This document shows, in pieces, positions 33,345-62,025 of a DNA stretch of 64,000 nucleotides. The stretch is from IMG/VR virus record IMGVR_UViG_3300037067_011504, positions 1 through 64,000 of that record, one strand, 5' to 3'. Both the position numbers and the translations under genes were made by a program. This DNA is from a virus. Lineage: Duplodnaviria > Caudoviricetes. The first letter of the stretch is position 1. The number at the start of each line of letters is the position of its first letter. Under the pieces are notes generated by a model. It saw only the letters and a program-made list of their open reading frames with translations. It had not been told where the DNA came from and ran no database searches.

Positions 33345-33578
33345 TTATTTATATTCTTTTTTATAAATTATAATAAATAGCCATTTTATATTATGTCCTA
33401 TTAATTGTATTGGATAAGTATATTTATCACCTTCTTGTTTTGGATTTTCTAATACTTTACAATGATATATTATTTTAAAACCCAACCATCTTAAATACCA
33501 TGGTAAAACTTTAAAATGTACTAATGTATCATTCTTTTTAAAAAATGAATCATTAAAAGTTAATTGAAATTTTTCCAT
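33345..33578 (-). CDS. hypothetical protein
   Basis: TAATG-coupled ORF. Confidence 0.6.
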   Translation of the reverse strand: MEKFQLTFNDSFFKKNDTLVHFKVLPWYLRWLGFKIIYHCKVLENPKQEGDKYTYPIQLIGHNIKWLFIIIYKKEYK

Positions 33579-33970
33579 TATTGATATGATCTTACTTGTT
33601 CTATTAATTCTTTAGCAAGTAGAGGATTCTCTCCTTCTACTGATTGAGCATAAGCAATAGCAGCTTTCTGTGCATGAGGATCATCATCCACTCTTAATAC
33701 GAAGTACCATGCATCAGGATCAATTTCTGAACCATCTGCTTTGCTGATGATATATTTACTTGCTTGTAATCCGCCTTTCTTATATCCTTTCTTAATAGGT
33801 AGTTCAGTTTTATTATATATCTCACATAATATCCTTCCTGTATCGATATCTTTTTTTATTATTTTGATCCAATAAGGATAATTCATGTAACATTCATCAT
33901 CATTTACATAGATTTTGTTTCCTTGTTCAAATAGAGCAAGATGTTTTTCTTCAAGTAATATTTTTTCCAT
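33578..33970 (-). CDS. hypothetical protein
   Basis: C-terminal KY...YFVLR-D-DPHA-AA-AYA module, common in phages. Confidence 0.65.
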   Translation of the reverse strand: MEKILLEEKHLALFEQGNKIYVNDDECYMNYPYWIKIIKKDIDTGRILCEIYNKTELPIKKGYKKGGLQASKYIISKADGSEIDPDAWYFVLRVDDDPHAQKAAIAYAQSVEGENPLLAKELIEQVRSYQ

Positions 33971-34281
33971 TAGAATAATATTTTTTGTATCGGTTCTCTC
34001 AGTAATATATCAATTGATTTAATAAATAGATTACCATCATTCATATATCTCAATAGGTTTTTTCTATTGGATGAATAGGTAAGATATCTTGAATAGTACT
34101 GATTGGTTTGTGGATTGTATACTATCAATTCTATTCCTTCTCTTATCTCAGCATTTTCAGCAGTTAGTATCTCTCCTTCAGGAGGTAGTTTAAATATTTC
34201 TTTTATATTAGTCATTTTCTCATATCCTTCAGGAAGTGATTGGTAATACTCTAATTCGGTTTCTGTAACTATCTTATCCAT
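33970..34281 (-). CDS. hypothetical protein
   Basis: Coupled ORF. Confidence 0.6.
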   Translation of the reverse strand: MDKIVTETELEYYQSLPEGYEKMTNIKEIFKLPPEGEILTAENAEIREGIELIVYNPQTNQYYSRYLTYSSNRKNLLRYMNDGNLFIKSIDILLREPIQKILF

Positions 34282-34579
34282 TTAATTCTCTATTAAAAGC
34301 ATCTTCTTCTTCATCAGGATCACCATATATAAGTTTATCTATTTCATCATCATAATCTTTATCATCTTTCTCTTTATATATCTGAAACATCTCTTCCATT
34401 GTATGTTCAGTTACTGGCATATAATGATCACAAATATACTTCATGAAATCTCTTATTTCTTTTGCTTCTTCACAATATAGATCTTCTACAATATATAAAT
34501 AAGCGTTTCCAAAATTATATCCCTGACTCTTTAAAGCATGAGATATAATATAACAATTTCTTTCTCCTAATTTTTCCAT
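34274..34579 (-). CDS. hypothetical acidic protein
   Basis: Coupled ORF with an acidic tail. Confidence 0.6.
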   Translation of the reverse strand: MEKLGERNCYIISHALKSQGYNFGNAYLYIVEDLYCEEAKEIRDFMKYICDHYMPVTEHTMEEMFQIYKEKDDKDYDDEIDKLIYGDPDEEEDAFNRELNG

Positions 34580-34580
34580 A

Positions 34581-34955
34581 TTATTTATGTAAATATTTAA
34601 ATGAAGATAAATTAATAAAACTCTTTTTTATATCATCAATTCTTTTTCCCATTGCATTTCTAATATTTTTACTACATGTTTCTTGTGCTTCTCTATTTTC
34701 TTTAACACTATCTCTTATTTGCCATAGATGATGACAATAAGGATGATAATTAACAAATTGAGTTTTAGAAGGAAATAGTTGAGCCATGAGAATATTATCA
34801 GGAATATATTTATATCTTGCTTCTTTAATTTCTTTATAAGAAGGAGAATTATATTTTGTACTTATAGATAGATGCCATAATCCTTCATCAATAGATATTA
34901 TTATATCACATCTTCCCATCTTAAATGTTCCAGTTTTATATTCTTTTTCTTCCAT
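34581..34955 (-). CDS. conserved phage protein (HLSIS...P...HP-C-HLW family)
   Basis: WHLSIS, PSYKEI, FVNYHPYCHHLW. Confidence 0.65.
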   Translation of the reverse strand: MEEKEYKTGTFKMGRCDIIISIDEGLWHLSISTKYNSPSYKEIKEARYKYIPDNILMAQLFPSKTQFVNYHPYCHHLWQIRDSVKENREAQETCSKNIRNAMGKRIDDIKKSFINLSSFKYLHK

Positions 34956-34957
34956 TA

Positions 34958-35614
34958 TTATTTATTTATTAAATCTGGAAAATGTTTAAGGATATTGTGT
35001 TTATAGTATATATTAGGATGGTTAATTGTTTTTAACCAATCTCTGTCTGGTATTCTTGCACCAGGACCAGTCTCTGCACCTATAATTAAAAGATCCAATG
35101 AGTATGATGAATAGTAGTTATTAAAATCAAATCTATCTACAGGTCCTAATATAGGCTCAAGAGACACAAATAAGGGGCATAATGTATGAGAGGTAGATCT
35201 TATTAACCATTGTACTCTATCGAAGTCCTTATTGCTTGTTATAGTAGTCCCTAACATACAATTACCAGGCCATTGATAATTCTTATACTTCATTGGTCTT
35301 TTAGAAAGAAACATGAACAGATGTTGAGGATTTTCGTTTACTACTTTAAGTATCTCATATATCCAGTTCTGATGTACACCTTCACTAAATATGTCGGACA
35401 TTGAACCAACGAATATCTTAGCTCCTTTTTTCTTTTTATATGGTTCTTGTAATCTTTTTTCAAAGAATTCCGGTCTATTCCATTGATCGATCCATTTAAA
35501 TCGTCTATTCATTGCTTCTGCATAACATTGGAATTCCTGACAGTTATTAGCACATCCAACGATGGGATTAAATGACCATTTTGCCCATCCGATAGTTTTA
35601 CTTATATCATTCAT
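34958..35614 (-). CDS. phage Gp37/Gp68 (DUF5131) radical-SAM-like protein
   Basis: WSFNPIVGC...C...CYA, IFVGSMSDIF, LSKRP, FVSLEP, IIGAETG. Confidence 0.88.
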   Translation of the reverse strand: MNDISKTIGWAKWSFNPIVGCANNCQEFQCYAEAMNRRFKWIDQWNRPEFFEKRLQEPYKKKKGAKIFVGSMSDIFSEGVHQNWIYEILKVVNENPQHLFMFLSKRPMKYKNYQWPGNCMLGTTITSNKDFDRVQWLIRSTSHTLCPLFVSLEPILGPVDRFDFNNYYSSYSLDLLIIGAETGPGARIPDRDWLKTINHPNIYYKHNILKHFPDLINK

Positions 35615-35617
35615 AAT

Positions 35618-36493
35618 CTAGTCTTTAAGATTATTAACAAATTTCTTTAATTCACTTCTATAAGTAATTCGTTCATCTCTTTCCTGTGCAAGAAGATCTT
35701 CGTATTTACTTTGATCAAATATCTCGAGTATTGCGTCTTCACATAGTTTCATTAATTCTTCAGGTCTAACAGCATCTAATTCTACTTGTCCTAATCCTTC
35801 CCATTTAGCAGTACGTGAATCAGTAAGTTTTGTAGGCGCTGGTGGTAAATTCCATTCTTCTACTTGTTCTTGCATTAATGCAATTCTTCTTACTTCAACA
35901 TCGATTCCAAATCTATTGAGATTATCATATATACTTCTTGGTATATCTTCTCCTGATGGATCATAATCTCCAAAATAAAGTATTATTGGGATCTTATCAT
36001 TTAAATAAGCATGTTCAAATCTTCCATAAGCATCATTTAAGAATGTTAACGAAGGATATCCTTTACATGCACCTAATGCTATTGACCAATCGTTACATAT
36101 ATTTTTAAATACTCCTTGTAATGCTTTCTTTTCAATAAATATTTCTGGATAATATGGTTGATTTTCCCATTTATTTTTATGATAATTCTGCATCCATAGT
36201 TTTATTTGATGTTGAGCATTATCAATTTCATCATCTAATATTGTTTCTTTCCAGTTTGTTTCTCCTACCATAGTACGATCAAGATCTGAGAATTGATCGA
36301 AATCTATTTTATCATCCCATCTGGCATCAATCATTGCTACAACAACACGTTTATAATGTTGTATATCATTAGTCATTCCAAGTCCTACTAGTTGATAATG
36401 TAAAGCACGAAGAGTTAATATCCCTTTTTCATATCTATTACATATATCAATAGAATTATCTATTATCCATTCTTTTGTAAATATGTCTTTCAT
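35618..36493 (-). CDS. TopoVI-A/Spo11-like wHTH-TOPRIM protein
   Basis: TLRxLHYQLV, IEK, GYPS, YFGDYDPSG, ELDA. Confidence 0.8.
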   Translation of the reverse strand: MKDIFTKEWIIDNSIDICNRYEKGILTLRALHYQLVGLGMTNDIQHYKRVVVAMIDARWDDKIDFDQFSDLDRTMVGETNWKETILDDEIDNAQHQIKLWMQNYHKNKWENQPYYPEIFIEKKALQGVFKNICNDWSIALGACKGYPSLTFLNDAYGRFEHAYLNDKIPIILYFGDYDPSGEDIPRSIYDNLNRFGIDVEVRRIALMQEQVEEWNLPPAPTKLTDSRTAKWEGLGQVELDAVRPEELMKLCEDAILEIFDQSKYEDLLAQERDERITYRSELKKFVNNLKD

Positions 36494-36496
36494 AAT

Positions 36497-36967
36497 CTAA
36501 TTAGTTTTCATTGTATAATAAGCAATAAGAATAGCATCAGCAGTATTATTAGATATTGGTTGATTAGGTAATATCCTTTGAAGATATTCTCTTAATCTTC
36601 TCTTCCATTCTACTTTGCTTTCTGTTTTATCCTTTTTAAGGTTATAATATTTCATCCATGTCTGTGGAGTAACTTCTTTAAAAGGAATATCAAGAGCTAA
36701 TAAAGCCATCTCTATATGACCTACATTCTTCATAAATGTAGAAACAGATGATACTCCCATTCCTGGCATTCCATGAACCTTCTCAAGAACACATGAGATA
36801 TTACAAGAAAAAATAATAGATTGTTTTAATAATTTATACCATTCTTTTGTAGTATGTTTAGCGAATTCAATTGTATGTATTTCTTTTAACTTGTTATCAA
36901 TAGTGTATATTAATGCGATACATCCACTTGAAGATCCTGGATCGATTCCTATATATATATTATTCAT
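36497..36967 (-). CDS. RuvC-like Holliday junction resolvase
   Basis: IGIDPG, E-KV, PQTW, ADAILIA. Confidence 0.85.
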   Translation of the reverse strand: MNNIYIGIDPGSSSGCIALIYTIDNKLKEIHTIEFAKHTTKEWYKLLKQSIIFSCNISCVLEKVHGMPGMGVSSVSTFMKNVGHIEMALLALDIPFKEVTPQTWMKYYNLKKDKTESKVEWKRRLREYLQRILPNQPISNNTADAILIAYYTMKTN

Positions 36968-38937: not shown

Positions 38938-38956
38938 TTTGTTTAGTTATTAATTA

Positions 38957-40438
38957 TTAAATATATTTCATTAGTTTTACTGTTAAAGCACAATATCTGG
39001 TCCAAGTAGGAGTAAATAAATCTGTACTGTTATAATCTAAATACCATGCATAACCGTTTCCAAATCCTGTATCATCGGATAACCAAAAATCACCATATTT
39101 ATGTATGCTGTCGAATCCTTGATCATCACCAGTATCACAAAATCTATTACCGGCACCTATACCTTTAAATCCATATGTATCTGTAGCACCAAAATTGGGT
39201 GTTAACCAATGACCTAATCCTATCTCTTTTAATTTTCCTCCTGCAATACTCCAATCTCCAATATTATCTATTAGATTTATAATATCAGTAGAAGTAGGTA
39301 CCTTCCATCCAACTTCTCTTGTAGAACCTCTTTTAAGATATGGAAATCCATGTACATTATTAAGTGCATAATGATTATAAAGGGCACCATAGGTATTTTT
39401 ATAGATTATATTATTATCATACCAACAGTATGCACCTGTAATATCTGTGATAAATCCATCTACTTCGAGATTATAACAAAGATATGCAGCACTTGTTACA
39501 TGTCCTGCCTGCCATACTATTTCACTAGTGTTTGTTTCTCCATAACCTATATCTGTCCCGGTCCATGATATCTCTACATCATCTACATTACTCCACGACT
39601 TAGATATACTTACATCTGTTAGTGCTGCTTCGTAATAAAGTGCTCCTGATCCATCAATATAGAATATCAATCCTCCTGATGGACCAGTATCTCTTAATGA
39701 ATATGCTCCGATCTCTGCAATGAAGTATCTAAAGGCACGAACATGACAAGTAGTTGATTTAAGTGTTTCTGTTTGTGTACCAGTAGAGAAATCTTGCATC
39801 CATGCTTCTGTAGCTGATGATTCACTCGATGACCAATATGTCCCGGCAGCAAAATCACCTACTCCATGAAGATGAAGATTAGTATACATCTCATTTAATT
39901 CATCTTTTGAAGGCAACAACATATCAGTTGCTCCTCTTAATATAATATTAGATATTGCAGTACCATCTGCATAGTGTGTTGCTTTAAAATTTTCTACTAT
40001 CCACCGTTGATTACCCATGTCAATAGTTGTATAGACATTTCCGTCATAATCAGTAAGTATACCTTCTTCTTCTATTGGTACTGGTACAGTATCGACAGGA
40101 AATTCAAGTTCTATACATTTTGTTATGTCAGTAGTAGTAACTATTATTACTCTTCCTCTATTATCATCTGCTATCTGTCTATAATTTTTAGAGATATAAT
40201 ATCCCTGATCAAATGCAAGTTTATTAATATCTATGTCATAAGTATCAAATTGTATATTATAATTTACATTTCCGTGATATTGTTCATAATTACGTAGATG
40301 ACTTCTATATTGAGTATAGAACATCAATGCAAAATATTGATCTTCTGTCAATGTTGATTCATCATCAAGAGTAGCAGTTTCGCTAACCAATGTTATTATA
40401 CCATTGGTTATCTGTGTTACGTAAGCACTTGTTGTCAT
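38957..40438 (-). CDS. FISUMP (Fib_succ_major) protein with an inserted DUF1566/Lcl-like domain
   Basis: FISUMP motifs DYDGNVY...QRWxxEN, YGALYN, GWKVP, AGGKLKE, GF...AGNR; DUF1566-like motifs LPSKDEL...YWSSSE...VRAFR. Start placed at MTTSAY. Confidence 0.8.
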   Translation of the reverse strand: MTTSAYVTQITNGIITLVSETATLDDESTLTEDQYFALMFYTQYRSHLRNYEQYHGNVNYNIQFDTYDIDINKLAFDQGYYISKNYRQIADDNRGRVIIVTTTDITKCIELEFPVDTVPVPIEEEGILTDYDGNVYTTIDMGNQRWIVENFKATHYADGTAISNIILRGATDMLLPSKDELNEMYTNLHLHGVGDFAAGTYWSSSESSATEAWMQDFSTGTQTETLKSTTCHVRAFRYFIAEIGAYSLRDTGPSGGLIFYIDGSGALYYEAALTDVSISKSWSNVDDVEISWTGTDIGYGETNTSEIVWQAGHVTSAAYLCYNLEVDGFITDITGAYCWYDNNIIYKNTYGALYNHYALNNVHGFPYLKRGSTREVGWKVPTSTDIINLIDNIGDWSIAGGKLKEIGLGHWLTPNFGATDTYGFKGIGAGNRFCDTGDDQGFDSIHKYGDFWLSDDTGFGNGYAWYLDYNSTDLFTPTWTRYCALTVKLMKYI

Positions 40439-40803
40439 AGTAATTATTTTTAAAGTAAATATGCATGTGAAAATAGACAATTATTATTTTGCATACAATT
40501 TAAACAATTTCCGTGAGGTAACAATATTGTACTATCTTCAAACTCAATGCAGAATATAGGATTTTTATTAAACATACTACTTCTGTTACGTGTATATTCA
40601 TCTAATTCATCCTTTGTCATAGGACGAATAGCTTTTATTTTTCTACCGTTTATCTCCATATATTTTATTTTTCTTAACAATTTCTTCAATAGTTAACATT
40701 AAACAATTTATATTCATCCATAATTTTCTTATATGCCAATATGATAGATTGTTTGTTTCAATAAGCTTTATCGATTTATTAAGCATGGTTATTAAATCAT
40801 CTT

Positions 40804-41572: not shown

Positions 41573-41583
41573 ATCATTGATTT

Positions 41584-41904: not shown

Positions 41905-42558
41905 TTATAATATACCCGAATCAGTAAATGAATAGTATTTATTTTCTCCAATAATTATATGGTCAAGTAACTGAATATCTAGTATACCACCGGCTTCTTT
42001 TATTTTCTGAGTTATTTTGGTATCAGATTCACTTGGATTAAGGTTTCCTGATGGGTGATTATGGCAAACTATGATACCGGAAGCGAGAGATTCTATTGCT
42101 TTTTTCATTACCATTCTTACATCTGTGACCGTTCCGCTAATGCCTCCCTGACTCAGTTTCATTCTGCTGATTACTTTATTTGACCTGTTTAAGAATAATA
42201 TCCAGAATTCTTCATGCTGAAGATCTGAGAGAAGCGGTTGAAAAATGTCAGCAACATCTTTTGAACAACTAATCTTCATTTTATCCGGTATATCTTGTAA
42301 TTTCTTTCTATTAGAATATTCATTAGTTGCTATTATTCTTGTAGCTTGCTGATGAGATAACCCATTATTTATCATATCAAAGTAACTTAACTTTGCTATT
42401 GAATTAAAATTATTATCACATTTTTGTAATAATGTATGAGCTTTTTCAAGTGGATCTTTTCCTGAGATAACAATCGATAATGTTTCAGCATCAGAAATAT
42501 AATGCGAACCTTTATCAACTATCTTATAATTCGGATCATCAAACTTATTTAATTTCAT
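41905..42558 (-). CDS. radC: RadC family JAB/MPN protein
   Basis: SDAETLSI N-terminus; EEFWILFLN, GG...T, HNHPSG...PSESD, LLDHIIIG. Confidence 0.93.
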   Translation of the reverse strand: MKLNKFDDPNYKIVDKGSHYISDAETLSIVISGKDPLEKAHTLLQKCDNNFNSIAKLSYFDMINNGLSHQQATRIIATNEYSNRKKLQDIPDKMKISCSKDVADIFQPLLSDLQHEEFWILFLNRSNKVISRMKLSQGGISGTVTDVRMVMKKAIESLASGIIVCHNHPSGNLNPSESDTKITQKIKEAGGILDIQLLDHIIIGENKYYSFTDSGIL

Positions 42559-44160: not shown

Positions 44161-45048
44161 TTAATTTAAATCAGCAAGTTCAAATTTCTCAATAAGATAA
44201 TCACCAAGCATATGATTTCTTCCAATTATATTGGGAAGATCAGTATGTTCCGGTTTATAGAGTTCAGTACACATATTATAGAATTCATAAAGAGTAAGTC
44301 CTTTTTGATAATCAAGGTTAGCATTATCTCCTTTTAAGAATTTAAGATAACTTGTACTGACATCACCAATTTGATTCTGTTGAAGAATATATTCAGGAGC
44401 TATTCTAAGACTGTCTTTAGCTACTCTCTTAAGGTTTAGTTCACCTATTATGTCGCATACATTAGAATAGTTTAAGACGATAGTTTTCATTCCTTCAAGA
44501 ATAGCAAGATCTCTTTGTCTTATCTCATCATAGTTGAATATCCAATCTGATATGACCTGGAATAGTGTTTCTACGTTGACTTTGTTATCTCCGAATGTTT
44601 GATGTCTGTTAGATGATCCATAGATACATTGATTTTTACATATCTTTATATTAGGACCAAAGGCAACTTGTATACCTTGTTGATGATATGCAATAGCAAT
44701 AGATTGTGTTGTTTCGTCTGTCTCTCCTTTTCTTATATTAAAAGCAGTTATCATCCTTCTTAATAGATGAGCTTCCAATGCTCCTATACCATGTTTTTCT
44801 TCAAGTACTGGTAATAATGTCACTCCTGGAAATGCACTTGCGCCACCTGATGTAGCATAAATAGGATCCATATCAAATAGTAGTTTAGCTTTCTCGAGCA
44901 TGTCATAGACTCTTTGAAATAATACATGATGTACTATTCCGCTTATTGGATTACCTCCAATGTTTCTTTCATCAATTGTTTCTTTTAATTCATCAAGAGA
45001 TAACTCCTGTACCGGACATTCTTTAAAATTTAATAATTTTTTTGTCAT
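44161..45048 (-). CDS. DUF932-like protein
   Basis: Q-AFG...IC-NQC motif and TLYEFYN-CT; family call is tentative. Confidence 0.45.
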   Translation of the reverse strand: MTKKLLNFKECPVQELSLDELKETIDERNIGGNPISGIVHHVLFQRVYDMLEKAKLLFDMDPIYATSGGASAFPGVTLLPVLEEKHGIGALEAHLLRRMITAFNIRKGETDETTQSIAIAYHQQGIQVAFGPNIKICKNQCIYGSSNRHQTFGDNKVNVETLFQVISDWIFNYDEIRQRDLAILEGMKTIVLNYSNVCDIIGELNLKRVAKDSLRIAPEYILQQNQIGDVSTSYLKFLKGDNANLDYQKGLTLYEFYNMCTELYKPEHTDLPNIIGRNHMLGDYLIEKFELADLN

Positions 45049-45065: not shown

Positions 45066-46016
45066 TTAAACTGATTGAACTGATTCTCTGTCTTTACAAT
45101 CGAAGACCGGACATTCTTTACATACTTTATAGTCTGGTTTAGTAGGCCATCCAAGTCTTTCATTATACTCAATAAGATTAATAGTTTTATTTATCATCTC
45201 ATGTAATTCATTCTCTACTGTTGGATCCCAATTAACCTTTACAAGTTTATCTTCTAATAGTTCTTTTTTATAATTGAACACCCAATAGTAGAATCGTAGA
45301 TTATCTTCTCTTATAAGTTCTATTACATTACGAGTAAGGATAGATGTCATATGAGGATTTAGATCAACATGGTTTATTATCTGTCTTGCTCCATAATGAT
45401 ACATATATCCTTGCGAATGATCCATATACTCTGGAGAACCCCAACAATATTCTCCATATGTAGAATTAAGATCTGCAGTAAGCTTGATATCTATTATAGC
45501 AAGTCTTAAACCGGTATCAGAAGGATTATCCTTTATCCTTTCATCTGTCATGATAGCAGTAGGAAAGATATCAAACTCCATCTTCAGGTATATATCGGGG
45601 TTCTTATGCCAGGGAATGATCACCTTAGTCTGTGTGTTTTCCTCAATAGGTGTTATCTGATACTTTGCACATAGTATCTTAAATCGTTTTGCCTGTTGTT
45701 CTATACGTTCCTGATCACTTGTCTTTTCTCCTTGTAATAATGGTAGATTAAGTTGTTTACGTTTAATATTTTCAAGTTCCTTAGCTTTTAAAAGCTTTTT
45801 ACGTGGTAGATCATTTTGTATCTGACCTCCCGATCCTCTTCCAATACATAAAGTCTCAAAGAAATGACCTTTACGCATTGAATCGGTAGAATACTTGTGT
45901 GTCTTGATTATATAAAGATGATAGAGATTTTTAGGACAAGTATTTTCTCTTTCCTCACCTTTATAAAGAAATTTCGTTATTAATGATTGGTTTAAAGGAT
46001 TCTTTTTAAAATCCAT
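45066..46016 (-). CDS. PD-(D/E)xK exonuclease (RecB/Cas4-like)
   Basis: CP...G-FFE, EFD, IIDIKLT, QGYMY, and C-terminal CxxC-x3-C. Confidence 0.8.
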   Translation of the reverse strand: MDFKKNPLNQSLITKFLYKGEERENTCPKNLYHLYIIKTHKYSTDSMRKGHFFETLCIGRGSGGQIQNDLPRKKLLKAKELENIKRKQLNLPLLQGEKTSDQERIEQQAKRFKILCAKYQITPIEENTQTKVIIPWHKNPDIYLKMEFDIFPTAIMTDERIKDNPSDTGLRLAIIDIKLTADLNSTYGEYCWGSPEYMDHSQGYMYHYGARQIINHVDLNPHMTSILTRNVIELIREDNLRFYYWVFNYKKELLEDKLVKVNWDPTVENELHEMINKTINLIEYNERLGWPTKPDYKVCKECPVFDCKDRESVQSV

Positions 46017-46570: not shown

Positions 46571-47278
46571 TTAATCGATTCTTAGTAATGCTTCGAGTTC
46601 ATCAATCTCTTTTCTGGTTATCTTATTCGGATCTTTATCACCAAGAGATGATTTACTAAATAGTTCTATTATCCGTAATTGATAATCCGGACCTCTATTT
46701 GTCCAGTCCTGGAATAGTTTAAGAGCTTCAAATGGTCTCATGAAGTATCCTTTTCTTGCATATTTACAACATCTCAATAATGAACTGATAGGACAATGAA
46801 TATTCTTTAATCGTAATATTCCATGTAATTCATCATCTAAGAAGTCTTCATCAACCATTACTTCAGTAGGAGATATTATTGCTGCACGTACAATAGTGAA
46901 ATCAAAATTATTTAGTATTTCTTCTACCGTACCAAGTGTAACAATCTTACCTTCTATCACCGGTTTAATAATCTGAGGAGTAGGAATAGAATTTAATTCC
47001 GGATGTTTTTTTCCTTTTACAGCCATCGTGATAGATACATGATTTTCATAGTCTTTCTTATATCCTAATGATATTAAATCTTTGAGCATATCATCACATG
47101 CTTGTTCTGATTTAGGAAATATATCTACATCCCATGCTTCTTTTACTTTCTTTGTTGATAGTGGAGATGCACAATAACGTGCATAACCTCCACATATGAC
47201 ACAATCATTTTTCTGTGCTAAATCATATAATACTGATATCTCAGTAAATCCTCTTAAAAGTTTTGTAGTTTTAAACAT
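46571..47278 (-). CDS. nucleotidyltransferase, class II CCA/poly(A) polymerase head-like
   Basis: ICGGYAR, DVDIF, FDFTI, R-xKY--KGY. Confidence 0.8.
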   Translation of the reverse strand: MFKTTKLLRGFTEISVLYDLAQKNDCVICGGYARYCASPLSTKKVKEAWDVDIFPKSEQACDDMLKDLISLGYKKDYENHVSITMAVKGKKHPELNSIPTPQIIKPVIEGKIVTLGTVEEILNNFDFTIVRAAIISPTEVMVDEDFLDDELHGILRLKNIHCPISSLLRCCKYARKGYFMRPFEALKLFQDWTNRGPDYQLRIIELFSKSSLGDKDPNKITRKEIDELEALLRID

Positions 47279-47279
47279 T

Positions 47280-48053
47280 TTAAAGATTATTTGCTATTTT
47301 ATTAATATCATCTGTTATGAGTTCTGTAAGAGTAACGATACCCTGAGTAGACAATAGTGTCTGTCCATCAGGTAACATCAAGGAATTTAAGTCAAGACCC
47401 ATGATAGCTATCTTAAGAGATTTTTGTAGTACAATAGACTTATCATTAGCTTTCTTTAATTCTGCCTTAATACCATTCTTAGACTCTACTGATCCTAATC
47501 CTGATCTATCAACGATATATTTACATAATACATTTGATATATCAGCTATCTGAGTATGACTTGTTACCTTTTTATCTGTATTATTAGATACCTTTGCACA
47601 TAATAGCATTGCAGCTTCATAAGATGACTGAGAAATGATACTCAATATCTCCGGTCTTGATCTTACATATTTATATTCTGCCGATTTATCTTTATTGACT
47701 TCTGTTCGTGGTCTTTTACGTTTCTCTTTTTCAGCCTCAGTATAATCAATGAAATTATCTATTTTTCCTTTAGGACCAATAGATACTTCATATTCTTCTC
47801 CGATAAGAAATTTAGTTTGATTTTTAGAGTTAGTTGAAAATTGACCGATTGTATCATCTTCTGCTTTTAGATCAAAATAATAAATAGTATTTTTCGTGTC
47901 AGGAACAGTCCATTCTCTATTAAACACTACATCTTCTACTTTAATTTTTTTTGTTTCCATAATTGTTTTTTTTGTTTTCTTATTAAAATATTCACTTAAT
48001 TCTTCTCCATAAGCACTACCTAATATGGCAATATCTTCTGCTGTATCGCCCAT
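47280..48053 (-). CDS. putative ssDNA-binding/annealing protein
   Basis: Beta-rich OB-like N-part and I-x-QSS-x-AA helix; lies between the exonuclease and ATPase. Confidence 0.4.
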   Translation of the reverse strand: MGDTAEDIAILGSAYGEELSEYFNKKTKKTIMETKKIKVEDVVFNREWTVPDTKNTIYYFDLKAEDDTIGQFSTNSKNQTKFLIGEEYEVSIGPKGKIDNFIDYTEAEKEKRKRPRTEVNKDKSAEYKYVRSRPEILSIISQSSYEAAMLLCAKVSNNTDKKVTSHTQIADISNVLCKYIVDRSGLGSVESKNGIKAELKKANDKSIVLQKSLKIAIMGLDLNSLMLPDGQTLLSTQGIVTLTELITDDINKIANNL

Positions 48054-49582
48054 TAAAATAATGCTTTATTAGATGTTTTTGTTTCTTTTGTTTTCTTATC
48101 CTTAGACTTTTTCTCATATCCAACTATTACGAGTTTATCCAGACTACGATCTATCTCATCAACAAACATGATCTTTCCGTTTGCTTCTGCAATATCATAT
48201 AGTCTGTCAAGCTTATTAAAGTCAAGTAATGATGCATCTCCTAATATCTGTATAGGAGTAGTATTCATCTTACACATTAGTTGTGCTACTAATAGTATAG
48301 TGTCTGATTCACATGTCTGATGTTCGTCAAATCGTAATCCATTTATTGTAAGATAACCATCTTTATCGAATAGAAGATTATCTACCGGGAATTCTCCTTC
48401 TGTTATTATCAGTTCTTTTTGTTTTCTACATTCTTCTATTATCTCTGTTAATGAACTACTTTTCTCAAATACTTTTTGATATTCATCATTATATTTATTA
48501 TACTTCTCAAGCTTAAGAGTTAATTCTTTCGCTTTGTCGACATAATTAACACCTCTTTGTATGATAACTTCCAGTTCACTAATCTTCTTCTGTATATCAG
48601 GATCATCAACAACAGTCTTTATCTTCTTATTTACTTCTTCAATAAGTTTATTTGATTCTCCTAACAATGTAAGATATTCAGTACGTTTAGCATCATGTAA
48701 TTCTGTTTCTTTTTTAATGTTCTCTTCTTCTGATTTAATACGTTCTTCAAGTATACGTATTTGTTCTTGATGATCTTTTATCCGTTGTTCGGAGAATTGT
48801 TTTGTCTTTGTAAGATTAAGATTAAGATTAGTAATATTTTCATTAATCCGTTCTTTTTCTTTCTCTGCAGTGGTTTTCTCAAGTTGAAGATTTATTACTA
48901 TTTGTCCGGATTCATTGAGTTTCTTATGTTCATCTTGTCTCAATGTGAGTTGTTTCTTTGCAGCATCAAGATTCTTTTGTATCTCCGATTCTTCTTTTGT
49001 TAGTTCATACTCTTTAACAAATCCTTTTGACAGATTAACCTGATTGTTTACTTTTGTTCGTTCATTAAATGATAGTTCTTCATTTGCTTCAAATTCCTTA
49101 TATTTAAGAAATGATTCACTCGGTAATAAGTTAAGGATATATTCTTTTTGTTTTCGTCTTCCTTCAGCTGATCTGCTCCATGATATGAATTCCGTGGCAT
49201 CAACATGATTATACTTAAATATATCACGCATATCGGTAATCTTTGATATCTTATTACCTTCATCATCAAAGATCACGAATTTAGTAGTGGTATCGGTAAA
49301 CTCATATACCACATTATACATCTTACCATCAGGACCAGGTATGATAAACTCATTGGATCCTTCGGTTTCGCCTATTGTGACCTTCTGTGGAGTATCATCT
49401 TTAATCTCATGAGCAGCTCTTAATGCTTGTAGAATGCTACTTTTACCTACTTCATTACATCCTTTAACAAAATAGATATGACTACCTTGTAATGTAAATT
49501 CTTCTTTTTTTAAAAGTTTGTAATTGTAGAATGACAATTTAATCTCTTGTTCTGTTACATCTAATAGTTTTTTCTTTTCCAT
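48053..49582 (-). CDS. SMC/Rad50-like ABC ATPase with coiled coil
   Basis: Walker A GCNEVGKS, long coiled coil, degenerate signature and D-loop (CESD, LGDASLLD). Confidence 0.8.
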   Translation of the reverse strand: MEKKKLLDVTEQEIKLSFYNYKLLKKEEFTLQGSHIYFVKGCNEVGKSSILQALRAAHEIKDDTPQKVTIGETEGSNEFIIPGPDGKMYNVVYEFTDTTTKFVIFDDEGNKISKITDMRDIFKYNHVDATEFISWSRSAEGRRKQKEYILNLLPSESFLKYKEFEANEELSFNERTKVNNQVNLSKGFVKEYELTKEESEIQKNLDAAKKQLTLRQDEHKKLNESGQIVINLQLEKTTAEKEKERINENITNLNLNLTKTKQFSEQRIKDHQEQIRILEERIKSEEENIKKETELHDAKRTEYLTLLGESNKLIEEVNKKIKTVVDDPDIQKKISELEVIIQRGVNYVDKAKELTLKLEKYNKYNDEYQKVFEKSSSLTEIIEECRKQKELIITEGEFPVDNLLFDKDGYLTINGLRFDEHQTCESDTILLVAQLMCKMNTTPIQILGDASLLDFNKLDRLYDIAEANGKIMFVDEIDRSLDKLVIVGYEKKSKDKKTKETKTSNKALF

Positions 49583-49596: not shown

Positions 49597-49848
49597 TTAT
49601 TGATTAATAACAAATCCTTCTCCATTATGTATATTTAGTTTAATATGTCTACACCACCAGGCACATACTTGATCAATAGCTATCTGTTCATTATTACATA
49701 AATCAAGATATATTCCTATCTTATTAGAAGGGACAAACATATCACTTTCATTTAACCATTCATAAAATTCATGAAAAAGTTTATCATAATCATCTTCTTC
49801 AGGGAAATAATTTTGTAATTCTACAAAGATATTTTTAAACTGTCCCAC
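49597..49848 (-). CDS. hypothetical protein
   Basis: Coupled ORF. Confidence 0.5.
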   Translation of the reverse strand: MGQFKNIFVELQNYFPEEDDYDKLFHEFYEWLNESDMFVPSNKIGIYLDLCNNEQIAIDQVCAWWCRHIKLNIHNGEGFVINQ

Positions 49849-50218
49849 TATGTTCTGTATATTTAAGTTGTTCTCTTACCTTATCAATAGTATTACTATC
49901 TACTGATCGTGTCTTATTGAAGAATTCATCGAACTCTTTATGTAGATATTTCTCATGGTTTGTCTCATAGTTAACACCTAGAAAAAACCAGTTAATAAAT
50001 CTATTATGTTTAATATCTAACTTTCTTATATTTATTTCATGTCCTAAGTAAGTAAATAGAGGAAATAGTATATTTAGTAATGGTATAAACCATATCTCGT
50101 ACATTATATATTTTTTATAATGTATAGGATCTTTGTGTGTTTGTGCTTTTATATCAAGATATCTTCCTAAGAAGATCGTTATTATATAACTAACTATTAT
50201 CAAAATCACCGTCATCAT
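49835..50218 (-). CDS. membrane protein
   Basis: Two TM segments, WFIPLLN. Confidence 0.55.
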   Translation of the reverse strand: MMTVILIIVSYIITIFLGRYLDIKAQTHKDPIHYKKYIMYEIWFIPLLNILFPLFTYLGHEINIRKLDIKHNRFINWFFLGVNYETNHEKYLHKEFDEFFNKTRSVDSNTIDKVREQLKYTEHSGTV

Positions 50219-51995
50219 TTATTTCTTTAAATATGTTGTATCCAAGATCTGATATAAATCTGAATATTGAATTAGTATCGATATTGCTATCATCTCTGTT
50301 CTTTATCGATTCAACAATAAACAGATTATCTATATAATTTCTTAGATTCTTATTATTACCATACAAATAAATACTTCTATCAGATTTATCAGATGGTAGA
50401 TAGTTTTCGTTAAACATCTTCTTTACTATGAAGATGAAGATAGATTTTTTTCTATCTGCTTGAGATATATACTTTTCATCCTTTCCTTTTAATCGACTAT
50501 CTACATAGTGAGAATATTCAGTATATTTCTGTATTATACTCGAGAATGTTATTATTTCTCCATTAGCATATTTAGATTCATTATTTAATAATGTTCGTAG
50601 TTTTACAAATGTCTCTGTTCGTAGATCAGTTATTGCTTCTGTTTCTTTACATCTTTGACTGTTTATACTCCATAAATGCTTATCAAAATTAGTTTCTGTA
50701 AACTCAATATCTTTTGTTTTAATGAATGTTAATGGTATTCTTTTTTCTTCTCTTATCAGATCAGGATACTTATTTATAAGATTAACGAATAGTGCCTGTT
50801 GAACATAATCAAGTATCCTGGTTGATCCTTTAAGATATTCCTTACGTGGTCTATAACCATCATCTATATTAGCCTTACGTGATATCTCCTTAGTAAAATG
50901 ATGAATAAGTATCACTGATGATCCTGTTACATTAGCTATCATCTTAATCTTACTGGCTATATGATCATCTCTTTCTAGTCCGGTTAACTTACAATCTATT
51001 AATCCGAGATTATCTATTATAATAACTCTTTTATGAGTTTTATATTTATCACTAAATTGTCTTGACCTGGTTACTATATTACCTATTGATGTTAACTTAT
51101 CATAGAATTCTATTATATAATCCTGATATTTAACTGATGCTATCTCTATCTTTTCTATGTCTTCATCTGTTATATTATAATTTATTGATTGCAGTTCTTT
51201 TGTTGTCATCTTCATATCACTTGCAAGGAATCCTCTTATAATCTCTTCTCTATCTTCTTCAAATGAAAACCATTGAACAGCAAGATTAGGTTCGTTAGCA
51301 AGCATACCACGAATGATCGATAATGTAAATTTGCTTTTTCCTGATCCCTCAGAACCTGCTATGATACATACATATCCTGTACGAAATGTAAATAATTTAT
51401 CTATTCTTATATATCCTGTCTTTATTACTCTGTCATTATCTCCTTTGGATGATTTTATTATCTTATTTATTGTAGCTGTTAGTGTATGCTTAAAATTATC
51501 ATGTACACTGCCATCGAATTCAATAAGATCAATTATAAAGTTTTGAATATGACTTATTATATCCATAGGATCTATCAATGATTCAAAAGATTTTGAATTT
51601 ACTTCAGATGATAATCTTATCAATTCTCTGAAGAAATACTTATCCATTATGATCTTAACATGAGATTCGATATTAGCTAGTTCCATCCCTGACAACTTAG
51701 TAAGATATATTGCACCGTCTATATCTTCTAATATATTATGATTACGCATATATTCAGTCAATATGACTAAATCCGGATGTTTATCATTAACATATAGATC
51801 TAATATAGATTTATATATTTTTTGATGAATATCTTTATAGAATACTTCAGGTTTAAGAAATGGGAATTTACCAATAAGATTATATTGATTGATTATCGTA
51901 CCTATTACATGCATCTCGATATCGGTAGCTTGTGGCGGTATTTTACCAAAATCAAGAGACATGATAGGATTATTCGTTTTTTTAATATTAGTCAT
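50190..51995 (-). CDS. dnaB: DnaB-like replicative helicase with a large C-terminal insert
   Basis: N-domain GKIPPQA...FY---HQ-IY; Walker A GSEGSGKS; FSFEE; IIIDNL; LKGS; KNRD arginine finger. Confidence 0.9.
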   Translation of the reverse strand: MTNIKKTNNPIMSLDFGKIPPQATDIEMHVIGTIINQYNLIGKFPFLKPEVFYKDIHQKIYKSILDLYVNDKHPDLVILTEYMRNHNILEDIDGAIYLTKLSGMELANIESHVKIIMDKYFFRELIRLSSEVNSKSFESLIDPMDIISHIQNFIIDLIEFDGSVHDNFKHTLTATINKIIKSSKGDNDRVIKTGYIRIDKLFTFRTGYVCIIAGSEGSGKSKFTLSIIRGMLANEPNLAVQWFSFEEDREEIIRGFLASDMKMTTKELQSINYNITDEDIEKIEIASVKYQDYIIEFYDKLTSIGNIVTRSRQFSDKYKTHKRVIIIDNLGLIDCKLTGLERDDHIASKIKMIANVTGSSVILIHHFTKEISRKANIDDGYRPRKEYLKGSTRILDYVQQALFVNLINKYPDLIREEKRIPLTFIKTKDIEFTETNFDKHLWSINSQRCKETEAITDLRTETFVKLRTLLNNESKYANGEIITFSSIIQKYTEYSHYVDSRLKGKDEKYISQADRKKSIFIFIVKKMFNENYLPSDKSDRSIYLYGNNKNLRNYIDNLFIVESIKNRDDSNIDTNSIFRFISDLGYNIFKEINDDGDFDNS

Positions 51996-52009: not shown

Positions 52010-52510
52010 TTATGATAATTGATTTTGTTTTTTAAAGTCCTGATATTTTAATTTCATTTCAAATACTAAAGAAATCCATTCTTTATATTTCCATTCAGGA
52101 TGTTTCTCTCTTTGTAATGCAGTACTTTGATCTACAAATTGATGAAATAATGGAGCTACTACTCTGATGTTTTCAGGATTTAATTTCCAATAAGTATATC
52201 GTCCTTTTGGTAATACATGAGCAAAACATGAATACCACATATTTGTTTCTTTTAAATCAGTTATATCAATTCCTGTGAATTGACAAATAACTCTTCCTTT
52301 TTCATTTTTTGCTTTTTCCCAACACCAGTTAAAAAGATCTATTTGATTTTCAAAACCAAATGAAAAATCTTGTATAGATTTTTTTTGACTTTTATAAGAT
52401 ATTTTTTTATTTACTTTTTTATCTGTACGGAGATATTGATGATTACAACAAAACCCATTAGAAAATACATTTTGATAACATCCCTCTTTTTTACATTGTT
52501 TCATACGCAA
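52010..52510 (-). CDS. HNH-like nuclease with Zn finger (NinG-like)
   Basis: CxxxGC...C-NH, CQFTG, FAHVLPK...NI...H. Confidence 0.65.
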   Translation of the reverse strand: MRMKQCKKEGCYQNVFSNGFCCNHQYLRTDKKVNKKISYKSQKKSIQDFSFGFENQIDLFNWCWEKAKNEKGRVICQFTGIDITDLKETNMWYSCFAHVLPKGRYTYWKLNPENIRVVAPLFHQFVDQSTALQREKHPEWKYKEWISLVFEMKLKYQDFKKQNQLS

Positions 52511-55735: not shown

Positions 55736-55770
55736 AGTCTTTCCTGTCTACCAAATACAAGTACTCATCA

Positions 55771-58315: not shown

Positions 58316-58387
58316 AAACGAGTTATTCGTTAATAATAGAAATTTTCATGCAAGTTACAACAAATTATTATATTGCATTTTCAACTT

Positions 58388-59116
58388 TTATTTAGACTTT
58401 TCGTAATTATCTGCTTTTGATAACGTTGGAGCATCAGAATAATATCTTCCAAGGTTATATACTGTCTTAAGATTCTTATCTTTTATTACAAGAAGTTTAT
58501 AACGTACTTCACCTTTTTTAACCTCAATAATCTCGGTAGTGATATTAAGATTATCTTTTGCTACTTTACGATATAGCTCAGTTATCAATGCTGAATAAGC
58601 CGGGCTTATCAGCTTAAAACGATTAACAGTAAAATTATCAATCTTACTGATGATCCATACTTTGAATTGTTTAAATAGTTTTTTCATTTTTATAATTTTA
58701 AATATTATGTAATTTAGATATTCTTTGTATATATCTTTTTTTAAATTCATCTAATGTTTCATTAGATTTTAAAATGCCAATTAATGCTTTATTGGTATTT
58801 CTATAATTAGTATCATAGAATTTACTATCTCTTTTGTTTAAGGGAGTAGCTATAATATGACTTCTATTAGAAATTGTAATTATTGTTATTGAATCCAAAT
58901 GAGTTTGTAACTCACCATTTGTTATTAATTTCTTTATTTTCATTCTTATCTGTTTTTAACAAGTTTATACTGATTACCACAACTTTCATAAAAGAAAGCC
59001 TTAGCAACCTTTTCATTACGAAATTTATAATACGATTGTGGATATTCCTCTTTCATAACCTCATGAGGTTTGATACGGAACTTAAATCTTTTGATTGTCA
59101 TGACTGCTTTACTCAT
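58388..59116 (-). CDS. three hypothetical ORFs (58388-~58687, 58698-58943, and an unlisted 56-aa ORF at 58946-59116)
   Basis: ORF track plus manual translation MSKAVMTIKRFKFRIKPHE... Confidence 0.5.
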
Positions 59117-59118
59117 AA

Positions 59119-59664
59119 TTATATAGTTTTAATTGGTTTACAACATCCGGATGATCCACCGCCATCAGATCTTACAGCATAATATACATCACAATCATTA
59201 TCATTGGCATATTGTTGTGCTATATCTTCGATTCTGTTAAATAATCCAATAACCGGTTCAATATCATAATGAATGATCTTCTTATAGATACTGGTATAAT
59301 AATCTTTATGTATCCTTTCTTTAGCTATTATACCCTGAGTAATATGTTTATCTCTTATATCATGTTTGGTATCACAATATAAGGCATCGGAGTTACTATG
59401 CCATGGTCCTTTGATATTATCCACAGTACCATCTTCAAGTTCAAATCTTAATGTAGCACCACCAAATCCCTGGAATCCTTTATATCCTGGTTCATTCTCA
59501 CAATGTTCAGGAGTACAATAGATATGATCTCCGGCATTATCATCAAGTGATACATACCAGGTCTTATGTTCACCTTGTATCTTCTTATATCGTCTTATCT
59601 GAGCATCATGTTGACCAGATATCATTGGTCCATGTATTGAGAATTCTACTTTACCTTTTTTCAT
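59119..59664 (-). CDS. conserved phage hypothetical protein
   Basis: GFGG...DG...KGPWHSN motif. Confidence 0.65.
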   Translation of the reverse strand: MKKGKVEFSIHGPMISGQHDAQIRRYKKIQGEHKTWYVSLDDNAGDHIYCTPEHCENEPGYKGFQGFGGATLRFELEDGTVDNIKGPWHSNSDALYCDTKHDIRDKHITQGIIAKERIHKDYYTSIYKKIIHYDIEPVIGLFNRIEDIAQQYANDNDCDVYYAVRSDGGGSSGCCKPIKTI

Positions 59665-59807
59665 GACTCATATATATTAGAATCGACAAGCATATCATTC
59701 TTAACATCTTCAACAGATACGAATATAGTATCACAATAAGGGCAATACTCGATGTGATCACTCTCATTAAGCTTCTCACCACAATAGGAGCATATATATC
59801 TTTCCAT
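59661..59807 (-). CDS. Zn-ribbon microprotein (48 aa), not in the ORF track
   Basis: MERYICSYCGEKL...YCPYCD; ATGA overlap with the next gene. Confidence 0.7.
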   Translation of the reverse strand: MERYICSYCGEKLNESDHIEYCPYCDTIFVSVEDVKNDMLVDSNIYES

Positions 59808-59812
59808 AACTA

Positions 59813-60019
59813 TTATGCATTATAAGATTGTCTTTGTTTCTTTTGTCTTATAACAAGCTTCTTTCTATTAATATTAAGAGTATTAGAATGAAGCTTATCG
59901 CATACATAGCATCTATCAGCATCAGGACACTTAACTAATAGATTTTTCTTAAGTGGTGCATTACAATCGATACAATGTCTTGTTGTATCTACCTGACGAA
60001 AATCAAATGGTTTTTTCAT
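59813..60019 (-). CDS. Zn-finger protein (DksA/TraR C4-like)
   Basis: CIDC...P-A-RCYVC. Confidence 0.5.
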   Translation of the reverse strand: MKKPFDFRQVDTTRHCIDCNAPLKKNLLVKCPDADRCYVCDKLHSNTLNINRKKLVIRQKKQRQSYNA

Positions 60020-60084
60020 TGTTATAATGTTTTTAATAAGTTATTATATGTAAAATTAAGTAGTTAACGTGAAATATTGAATAA

Positions 60085-60720
60085 TTATAAATTAGTTTTT
60101 AACCACATTGTAAAACCAGGAGAAGTTAATGGTTCATTATATTTATTTAAAGCCCCTTGCCAAGCTCTTTCACAAAGATCAATTACTTCTTCTCTTGTCC
60201 AACTATCTTTAATTGATTTAATAGAGATAGTGTTATCTGAATTGAGTTTAAGTTGTATGCCCAAAATAGAAAAATCATTCATAGAATTAAGATTATCATA
60301 ACCCTCATACTCAACCATTACTTCTTCAATCTTATTTCCTTTGTTATATTCACTGACATATTTATCAATGAATGATTTAGGAATAGAAGGAATATTATAA
60401 TCAACATTTGGATTATAAGGATAAACACCTTTAGACGTAAGAGAAAAATCAGTTGAAGCAATAATCTTTTTAAAATCTCTATGAGTATCAAATTTCATAC
60501 TACATTGTCTTACACTATCTTCAGGTAATACTATATACCAATCACCTTCTTTGATCTCATCATCAGATAAAATATAAAGATGTTGAGGAGTTTTCATTTG
60601 AGCATGGAATATTTTTGTTCTACAGTAATGAGGAGTAGATTGTAATTCTCTATGTTTATCAATCATCAGTCTTGCTTTTTTATCAGTTGGAAGTATAACA
60701 ACTTTACATTTTTTATACAT
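60085..60720 (-). CDS. Bacteroidota-phage conserved hypothetical protein
   Basis: VVILPT, QHLYILSDDEIKEGDW, KIIASTD. Confidence 0.7.
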   Translation of the reverse strand: MYKKCKVVILPTDKKARLMIDKHRELQSTPHYCRTKIFHAQMKTPQHLYILSDDEIKEGDWYIVLPEDSVRQCSMKFDTHRDFKKIIASTDFSLTSKGVYPYNPNVDYNIPSIPKSFIDKYVSEYNKGNKIEEVMVEYEGYDNLNSMNDFSILGIQLKLNSDNTISIKSIKDSWTREEVIDLCERAWQGALNKYNEPLTSPGFTMWLKTNL

Positions 60721-60728
60721 AATTATAA

Positions 60729-61052
60729 TTATTTATCAAGATGATCTTCAAGTATCTCACTCATAAGCATAGCACATATAGCTTCTTTATGTTCATGTTT
60801 AGGTTCTAATGATTTCATAAATGCTACACAATAACGCCATATTTCTTTTCGTTTAGATTCATCGATATTATTCTTGAATATAACTTTACCACCAGAAAAG
60901 AAAAGATCTGAGAATAATTTATTATATGGTGTATGACCATGTAAAAAATTTCTTTCTTTAGCTTCTTGGAGTAATTCAGGTATTGTATTATATGTACTAA
61001 ATACCATCTCAATACCATTTGGTTTTGGATAATCAAATTCAAATAAATTCAT
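60729..61052 (-). CDS. hypothetical protein
   Basis: FF-GG...S-EPKHEHKEA motif. Confidence 0.65.
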   Translation of the reverse strand: MNLFEFDYPKPNGIEMVFSTYNTIPELLQEAKERNFLHGHTPYNKLFSDLFFSGGKVIFKNNIDESKRKEIWRYCVAFMKSLEPKHEHKEAICAMLMSEILEDHLDK

Positions 61053-61397
61053 AATTTATAATTTTTAAAGGTTTATAATAATTAGATCATTATCTACAAC
61101 ATAAAATATGGTTAAATAATATCAATAGGATAGCTTACATAGTTAACTATCTCATTTCAAGGCAATATATATCATCAATAAATAATCACCATCAATTATA
61201 AGCAAATAATAGCATATATATAGCAATATCATAGTTAAATCCATCGCTTATTATAACTTATCTTTATAATAGATCAATCATTATATTATAATAACTGGTA
61301 ACATAAGATAATAATAATGATATCTATAGTATATACTTATTAATATAGTATATTCTCTTGTATTTACTACATATATTACTTATAAAAAGGTAAGAAA

Positions 61398-61477
61398 AGG
61401 GGTAAAATAGCCATTAGATTCAGGTTTACCCGCCTTAAATACCAATGATTCTGTAAAAGAACATACTATTTACCCCT
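61398..61477 (-). ncRNA. candidate structured RNA (three-way junction)
   Basis: Closing stem aggggtaaatag/ctattttacccct with two internal hairpins; G-U pairs favour the minus strand. Confidence 0.4.
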
Positions 61478-61610
61478 AATCTCAACAATATTTAATAATT
61501 TAAAGTAAAGTCGGTGATTTACTTAAATTCATTTTTGTTTTCTCGGGACCAAACTTAATAATTTAAAGCAAAATGGTTTTCATATTACTCGCTTAATCCC
61601 ATGAAGTAAT

Positions 61611-61638
61611 AAAAAAAAGGGTCTTTCGACCCCTTTCT
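61611..61638 (-). terminator. intrinsic terminator
   Basis: Minus strand gggtc-GAAA-gaccc plus U8, right after the TAG of 61639-62025. Confidence 0.9.
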
Positions 61639-62025
61639 CTACATCTCCACGCTGACAAATGTCCTGACTCTTCCCTGTTTTGACCTGAAAGCATAATCTT
61701 TCACAAGGTTCTTACTATCTTTCAGATGTGTTTCCAGATCGTCAGTAATGCCAATATTGACATTATTGTAACTCTTGGCATTGGATTCACCTGTTATATT
61801 TGCTTTGAGTGCAAAGAATCCCATAGGTTTGTTGTCCCTTGATGTGTAAGGTATCCATGCAATAACAGGTTGTAAACCTTCATCTTTAGACTTTTGCGTT
61901 TCAAACTTGCCGGAATACAATCCCGCTGGAATTTCGGGTATAATAGTTGCAATGGTAACACCCTTAGCAACCAATTCTTTTTGGAGTTCTTCTTTTTCGC
62001 TCCATGTTAAGCTGTTGTTGTTCAT
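61639..62025 (-). CDS. first gene of the leftward (early) arm, hypothetical
   Basis: 128 aa, has its own terminator, visibly higher GC than its neighbours. Confidence 0.75.
   Translation of the reverse strand: MNNNSLTWSEKEELQKELVAKGVTIATIIPEIPAGLYSGKFETQKSKDEGLQPVIAWIPYTSRDNKPMGFFALKANITGESNAKSYNNVNIGITDDLETHLKDSKNLVKDYAFRSKQGRVRTFVSVEM

Follow-up and report, generated by a model that had tools for sequence, protein, structure and literature searches.

A crAss-like phage genome with a DnaB-centred early arm and no detectable DNA polymerase or primase

The window analysed here is a 64,000-nt stretch, the first 64 kb of the 93,765-bp IMG/VR virus record IMGVR_UViG_3300037067_011504, and the system in question is the replication module encoded in its minus-strand early arm. 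We suggest that the record represents a complete crAss-like phage, which keeps its virion genes and virion RNA polymerase (vRNAP), carries a DnaB module with neither a DNA polymerase nor a primase, and borrows the replication machinery of its host. We give this reading a probability of about three in four.

Closed genome and replication genes of the early arm

The two ends of the record overlap: its first 683 nt align without gaps to the final 683 nt (93083-93765) at 91.7% identity, and open reading frames (ORFs) run on across this overlap. The record wraps round a circular or terminally redundant genome and is effectively closed, with ~93.1 kb of unique sequence after the overlap is discounted; CheckV estimates the completeness at 96%. 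The overlap joins two strain variants and is not an exact repeat, hence the assembly contains some strain mixing.

The early arm is contiguous on the minus strand and has plus-strand blocks on either side, as seen from the ORF orientation and from the GC skew, which flips at ~33.3 kb and ~62 kb. The first-pass annotation had bounded it by a convergent terminator and a divergent region, and both boundaries are in place. The elements that define the layout are the following.

33288..33312, no strand: GC-rich palindromic hairpin with flanking T runs (10-bp stem, 6 GC pairs), the convergent terminator between the late plus-strand block and the early minus-strand arm
33345..62025, minus strand: early/replication arm with ~62 tightly packed ORFs, from ORF layout and GC-skew flips
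62026..63061, no strand: divergent intergenic region of ~1 kb that separates the early arm from the late block; it contains GGTATATATA-type repeats, and its core is relatively rich in GC
13130..31444, plus strand: 6104-aa virion protein with the crAss vRNAP motif GSDFDIDSLF at aa 3681 (DxDxD RNA polymerase motif present)

One such hairpin was found at 33288-33312 against 0.2 expected in shuffled sequences. The 30 kb beyond the window lie on the plus strand and hold lysis, packaging, head and tail genes only, among them a spanin-like protein, a 1012-aa ORF, TerL, the portal, the major capsid protein (MCP) and tail proteins. On the circle this block joins the plus-strand block of the window, which ends in the 6104-aa ORF. 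Since the record is closed and the outside 30 kb are confined to these functions, neither a polymerase nor a primase lies elsewhere on the genome.

The replication genes recognised in the arm are listed below; L019 is an unrelated 38-kb phage contig and G002 is one of two contigs of a relative described further on.

50190..51995, minus strand: DnaB-family replicative helicase, 601 aa (PF00772 4e-18, PF03796 4.8e-17)
49835..50218, minus strand: 127-aa ORF overlapping the DnaB stop, kept beside DnaB in two relatives
52010..52510, minus strand: Cys-rich 166-aa ORF just upstream of DnaB, with a homolog beside the DnaB and DnaA-IV genes in L019
55771..56328, minus strand: DnaA domain IV (DnaA-IV) helix-turn-helix protein, 185 aa (PF08299 4.2e-16), conserved in G002
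48053..49582, minus strand: SMC/Rad50-like ATPase, 509 aa, with a central coiled coil (AAA_23 E 0.0024, phrog_1499 1.9e-23)
45066..46016, minus strand: PD-(D/E)XK (Cas4/RecB-like) nuclease, 316 aa, recognised by its motif and Cys cluster; part of the lineage core
36497..36967, minus strand: RuvC-like Holliday junction resolvase (phrog_1770 8.5e-22)

DnaB is the largest ORF of the arm. Its N-terminal (primase-binding) domain is conserved and its Walker A motif reads GSEGSGKS, while the alignment to canonical phage DnaB stops near residue 409 and leaves the last ~190 C-terminal residues without counterpart. In bacterial helicases the N-terminal domain of DnaB is the part that contacts DnaG. The 127-aa ORF is, by its position, a candidate helicase partner or loader, and the 166-aa ORF is a purely positional loader candidate. 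The DnaA-IV protein is a candidate origin-binding initiator. In L019 the DnaB gene is directly followed by a DnaA-IV gene with the homolog of the 166-aa ORF nearby, which suggests that the three genes travel together.

In the atlas the nuclease scores 0.96 against PDDEXK_1/DUF3799 clusters; a PDB profile search with it gave no match. The AAA_23 match of the ATPase lies below the Pfam cut-off, and the protein is present in two of the three relatives. The first-pass annotation had named for this arm a largest ORF of 601 aa, a DnaB, a DnaA-IV, a RuvC, an exonuclease, an SMC-like ATPase, a putative single-stranded DNA-binding protein (SSB) and an HNH protein. The first four agree with the matches above, the exonuclease fits the PD-(D/E)XK nuclease, and the ATPase stands more tentatively. 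The SSB and HNH assignments found no Pfam or PHROG match among the 62 early ORFs scanned and are thus not confirmed.

Search for a DNA polymerase or primase

Six-frame Pfam scans of the whole 93.8-kb record, which read through stops (threshold E<=1, with PolA at the default E<=0.001), detected no PolA, PolB, PolB_2, PolIII-alpha, DnaG_N, Toprim_2, Prim-Pol or small subunit of the archaeo-eukaryotic primase (AEP). The Pfam models PF00476 and PF00136 each detect the polymerase in just one of nine reference crAss-like genomes. Because generic models thus miss most crAss polymerases, the Pfam absence is a weak test, and crAss-specific profiles were built. The size of the largest ORF is likewise insufficient as an argument by itself, since crAss PolB is often split: the reference annotation gives it often as two ORFs of ~350-420 aa, divided by an intron or homing endonuclease, and such splits occur in cr271_1 and Fpv20.

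The crAss-specific profiles were made with jackhmmer from seeds of PolB-N, PolB-C and the DnaG-like primase. Eight whole genomes served as references: cr118_1, cr50_1 and Azobacteroides phage ProJPt-Bp1 (Suoliviridae), cr128_1 (Steigviridae), cr11_1 and cr271_1 (Intestiviridae), cr127_1 (Crevaviridae) and Flavobacterium phage Fpv20. Among them the profiles recover PolB-N in 5/8, PolB-C in 6/8 and the primase in 7-8/8, and small lineage-specific profiles detect a polymerase in seven. Applied to all stop-to-stop six-frame pieces of at least 30 aa from the present genome and a relative, the jackhmmer profiles found nothing at E<=0.01; with heuristic filters off, the best crAss-profile scores were 5-8 bits (E 0.1-1). 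Comparison by hhalign of every early ORF of at least 90 aa, and of the 1012-aa ORF, with the crAss PolB and primase profiles and with crAss PolA gave probabilities of at most 3.7%. The other large ORFs are accounted for as TerL, portal, MCP, virion structural and tail proteins.

Hence, as far as sequence and profile searches reach, the phage appears to encode no DNA polymerase and no primase. The first-pass annotation had claimed this for the arm; the six-frame Pfam scans and the crAss profiles extend it to the whole record, and hhalign agrees for the ORFs compared.

Several further genes of the arm and its surroundings were considered with regard to this absence or lie next to those that were.

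46571..47278, minus strand: 235-aa nucleotidyltransferase whose head resembles that of class II CCA-adding enzymes; predicted fold with a predicted local distance difference test (pLDDT) score of 87
44161..45048, minus strand: DUF932/DUF3871-like protein, 295 aa, 70-80% conserved in relatives; pLDDT 86.8
47280..48053, minus strand: 257-aa lineage-core protein of no known family, conserved in relatives
35618..36493, minus strand: Topo VI-A/Spo11-like Toprim protein, 291 aa (phrog_6247 2e-59, 'DNA topoisomerase'; GDYDPSGEDI motif)
34958..35614, minus strand: DUF5131 protein
63621..64000, plus strand: start of the tail-fibre-like 1012-aa ORF, which extends to genome position 66659 next to the spanin-like gene

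The 235-aa protein has a Pol-beta-type G-G...D-x-D motif and was considered as a mini PolX. This was rejected, as its predicted fold is that of class II CCA-adding enzymes (Foldseek E ~1e-6), and the model points to an RNA nucleotidyltransferase rather than a DNA polymerase. It belongs to the precomputed family PF26128 and has 397 homologs, many of them 60-80% identical and many on phage-sized contigs. A role in tRNA 3'-end repair is our guess. The CCA-adding-like enzyme is encoded, yet the tRNA and Rfam scans, which covered the 64-kb window, gave no match, and no tRNA gene was found there.

The model of the 295-aa protein has no PDB match (Foldseek none <1e-3; best VIA Z 6.2), and among viral models it resembles the DUF932/TIGR03299 'phage/plasmid-like' proteins; on these grounds its assignment as a primase or annealing protein is unsupported. 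The 257-aa protein may be what the first-pass annotation took for an SSB.

A reading of the 291-aa protein as a DnaG-type primase is likewise unsupported, as it has no Toprim_2 or DnaG_N match and its hhalign comparison with the crAss primase profile is negative. To judge by sequence, its GDYDPSGEDI motif resembles the Toprim motif of Topo VI-A/Spo11. It stands alone, with no B subunit nearby, and presumably recalls in this respect the 'Mini-A' proteins of mobile elements.

Searches of Pfam, PHROG, the PDB and a phage database gave no match for the 1012-aa ORF. Its first 83 aa alone are conserved and are shared with a 310-aa ORF of a relative, and the atlas gives lectin or tail-fibre clusters at scores of 0.83-0.88, as leads only. 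With these leads, the restricted N-terminal conservation and a negative hhalign comparison with polymerase profiles, it was discarded as a hidden polymerase. Its conservation pattern would be as expected of an exchangeable receptor-binding protein.

Elsewhere in the arm, a 507-aa protein at 38957-40480 (minus strand) carries Fib_succ_major and lectin-like Lcl_C domains and varies from 125 to 585 aa across relatives.

Place within Crassvirales and relatives of the phage

The phage has crAss-type TerL, portal and MCP, with PHROG matches to phrog_6681 (6.5e-106), phrog_6547 (1.3e-104) and phrog_11589 (2e-56). The named tblastn matches are all crAss-like phages, at ~40% identity for TerL and ~35% for the portal. 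Around aa 3681 the 6104-aa ORF is locally similar (E 1e-7 to 1e-13) to giant proteins of four families recognised by the International Committee on Taxonomy of Viruses, and its DFDID motif agrees with the virion RNA polymerase of the first-pass annotation. A TerS-like 200-aa ORF (genome 70262-70864) lies just upstream of TerL and has matches in 7/8 references (gene 86-like).

Maximum-likelihood trees of TerL and portal were built for 10 taxa, all from outside the epsilon and zeta groups and with no outgroup, and were midpoint-rooted. The TerL tree joins the lineage to Suoliviridae as sister (support 91/89), the portal tree to Steigviridae (support 100/99). In both trees the lineage falls inside the Steigviridae/Suoliviridae clade, nearer than Fpv20, which places its virion genes inside the diversity of Crassvirales.

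Of the features of the order, the phage thus has the crAss-type TerL, portal and MCP, the vRNAP block and a putative TerS beside terL, and it lacks the replication block with a DnaG-family primase and PolA or PolB. The description of the group by Yutin et al. (2021) allows exceptions to this block, so that its absence leaves the membership intact, and crAss-like phages without a DNA polymerase are already noted there (PMC7886860). Hence the phage is a further case of these exceptions and not a new phenomenon.

The comparison with Suoliviridae and Steigviridae (cr118_1, cr50_1, cr128_1) defines what has changed. The TerL, portal, MCP and TerS-like gene are alike and the genomes are of ~93-99 kb; the virion cargo block also follows the order of Suoliviridae, with proteins of ~1500, 700 and 620 aa and then one of ~5000-6000 aa with the DFDID vRNAP. 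However, these families encode PolA or PolB together with a DnaG-like primase, and the phage here does not. All that its early arm has in common with the eight references is a weak DnaB match and a single 107-aa ORF. Both the DNA polymerase and the primase are present in the neighbouring families, and to have neither is thus a derived condition. The usual crAss replication block (PolA/PolB, DnaG-like primase, SNF2 helicase etc.) appears to have been replaced as a whole module.

Two other groups of Crassvirales bear on this state. The epsilon crAss-like phages, including Cellulophaga phage phi17:2, have genomes of ~150 kb and a minimal replication set with no DNA polymerase, and they are without the transcription (vRNAP) block (PMC7886860). 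Compared by this published description only, the phage is like them in the missing polymerase and differs in its ~93.1-kb genome and its vRNAP block; by size and vRNAP block it is not in the epsilon group. The second is Azobacteroides phage ProJPt-Bp1 (Suoliviridae, Dechshavirus), which is classified in Crassvirales and has TerL and portal within Suoliviridae. A six-frame search of its record NC_055706.1 with the crAss profiles, carried over the circular junction, detected neither PolA nor PolB, and there is just one 151-aa primase-like piece at the record start. By these profile searches, ProJPt-Bp1 may be another polymerase-free member of the order.

The polymerase-free module is common to the phage and three relatives. 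The first relative is formed by G001 and G002, two IMG/VR contigs of one sample (53 and 39 kb), which are collinear with the entire genome; its proteins are identical to those here at 58% for DnaB (encoded on G001), 60% for the ATPase, 62% for the nuclease, 79% for the 295-aa protein and 80% for the nucleotidyltransferase, and no PolA or PolB was found in it. The others are the contigs L027 (99.5 kb) and L028 (94.9 kb). In both, a 20-kb stretch around the gene of the 295-aa protein contains DnaB and then the same core genes, and no polymerase Pfam family was found in this 20-kb DnaB neighbourhood. Contigs that carry a homolog of the 295-aa protein are 94.9, 99.5 and 100.7 kb long. DnaB and the 257-, 316- and 295-aa proteins are common to all three relatives and form the lineage core, and core proteins are ~60-80% identical across them.

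The relatives also differ from the phage in insertions. The DnaB at L028:1865-4699 has an intein with Hom_end/LAGLIDADG domains, which the DnaB here has not. TerL of G002 (19785-23090) is 1101 aa long against 730 aa here, which suggests that it holds an intein that is absent from the present TerL.

Proposed replication route, its alternatives and significance

The clue to the host is the following gene.

41905..42558, minus strand: RadC-like JAB protein, 59-66% identical to RadC of Bacteroidales metagenome-assembled genomes (MAGs)

The MAGs that share this level of RadC identity are many, belong to environmental Bacteroidales/Bacteroidia and come from lake sediment, fen and peat. From this likeness, the host is most likely a member of the environmental Bacteroidales.

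The absence of a polymerase and primase together with the presence of a phage DnaB is best read as use of the host replisome. The first-pass annotation had proposed host-dependent replication: the gene content fits and supports this proposal, and the engagement of the host replisome itself is a step further, which we put forward conditionally. Gene content, completeness, phylogenetic position and conservation in relatives are observed; an origin, helicase loading, host recruitment and a recombination phase are what we infer, in the following order.

Step 1: The DnaA-IV protein would mark the phage origin, and the phage DnaB would be loaded at this origin.

Step 2: The N-terminal domain of DnaB would recruit the host DnaG, and the host Pol III holoenzyme would be recruited via the clamp loader.

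Step 3: Later rounds would be driven by recombination with the nuclease, the SMC-like ATPase and the resolvase, and this phase would yield the concatemers for the terminase.

Phages P22 and lambda have replication schemes analogous to that of SPP1. The Bacillus phage SPP1 replicates in theta type with the origin binder G38P, the loader G39P and the DnaB-like helicase G40P, and takes DnaG, PolC and DnaE from the host (PMC5737612). The phage here is similar to SPP1, P22 and lambda in having a phage DnaB-family helicase and an initiator candidate with no phage polymerase or primase. However, its virion type and host phylum are unrelated to theirs. Unlike in SPP1 and lambda, no G39P-like or lambda-P-like loader was found, and the initiator candidate has the DnaA domain IV fold and not that of G38P or O.

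Several points weigh against the proposed host-dependent reading. No helicase loader family was detected among the early ORFs, and the search for an SSB gave nothing, as described above. DnaA boxes show no enrichment (23 where 28 are expected), the search for iterons in 52-63.2 kb gave just short two-copy repeats in the divergent region, and neither a DnaA-box cluster nor an origin was identified. The generic polymerase models have the poor recovery given above, ~40 early ORFs are without a family and only two were folded, and the 257-aa, 255-aa and Topo VI-A-like proteins were assessed by sequence only. crAss proteins evolve fast, and absence of similarity does not mean absence of function. 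The trees were sampled without an outgroup or epsilon and zeta phages, and the end overlap, being 91.7% and not 100% identical, means that strains were mixed in the assembly.

In the divergent region itself, which is AT-rich, the GGTATATATA-type repeats flank a relatively GC-rich segment at 62080-62600, for which Rfam gave no match and in which no ORF is convincing.

A rival reading is that a polymerase, a primase or both are present and unrecognisable, as a very divergent or new enzyme in the unannotated early ORFs or as a domain of a giant virion protein. Candidates among the early ORFs would be those of 257 and 255 aa, the Topo VI-A-like Toprim protein and the one resembling DUF932. We consider this reading unlikely. 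The number of early ORFs without family, the low sensitivity of the generic models, the 295-aa core protein with no match among solved structures and the late 846-aa and 616-aa ORFs, which have no PHROG match, leave room for such an enzyme. However, the crAss-specific profiles and hhalign are negative, and the unexplained early ORFs are all at most 316 aa long. Moreover, the two most conserved of the unknowns are an RNA-type nucleotidyltransferase and a DUF932-like protein, with neither a palm nor an AEP fold, and synteny links the 846-aa and 616-aa ORFs to virion cargo genes in Suoliviridae.

A non-canonical route, in place of simply taking over priming and synthesis from the host, is a further idea, to which we assign a low probability. 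Transcripts or R-loops made by the crAss-type RNA polymerase might prime the leading strands, or a core unknown might be a new primase or polymerase accessory factor, for which the 257-aa, the DUF932-like 295-aa and the Topo VI-A-like Toprim proteins are candidates.

It is very improbable that the genes are merely missing from the record through an incomplete or chimeric assembly. IMG/VR classes the record as linear and the mismatches in the end overlap betray mixed strains, but the 683-nt overlap is ungapped with ORFs continuing through it, and the CheckV estimate agrees with a nearly complete genome. The 53- and 39-kb contigs of the first relative match the gene order round the whole circle, and the other relatives lie on 95-101 kb contigs with the same DnaB neighbourhood. 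Least probable of all is a polymerase gene broken by introns, inteins or recoded stops and missed by ORF searches, which the split PolB of cr271_1 and Fpv20 and the inteins or intein-sized insertions in DnaB and TerL of relatives bring to mind, but against which stand the search of all six-frame pieces and the reading of the Pfam scans through stops, and an arm dense with intact ORFs (code 11) that has no gap fitting a set of polymerase exons.

We thus prefer the reading of a crAss-like phage that replicates with the help of its host. As phages without a polymerase are common and crAss-like exceptions have been recorded before, the advance is incremental. It has a practical side: such phages escape polymerase-based markers and generic Pfam models, and both overlook most true crAss polymerases as well. 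CrAss-like phages are usually described with a replisome of their own, and their frequent swaps between PolA and PolB are an open puzzle. A complete Crassvirales lineage that appears to have dropped both the polymerase and the primase but retained the virion RNA polymerase would mean that in this group the replication module can be exchanged in full, and would offer a clean case for how the replisome of Bacteroidales is recruited by a lytic-type phage of 93 kb.

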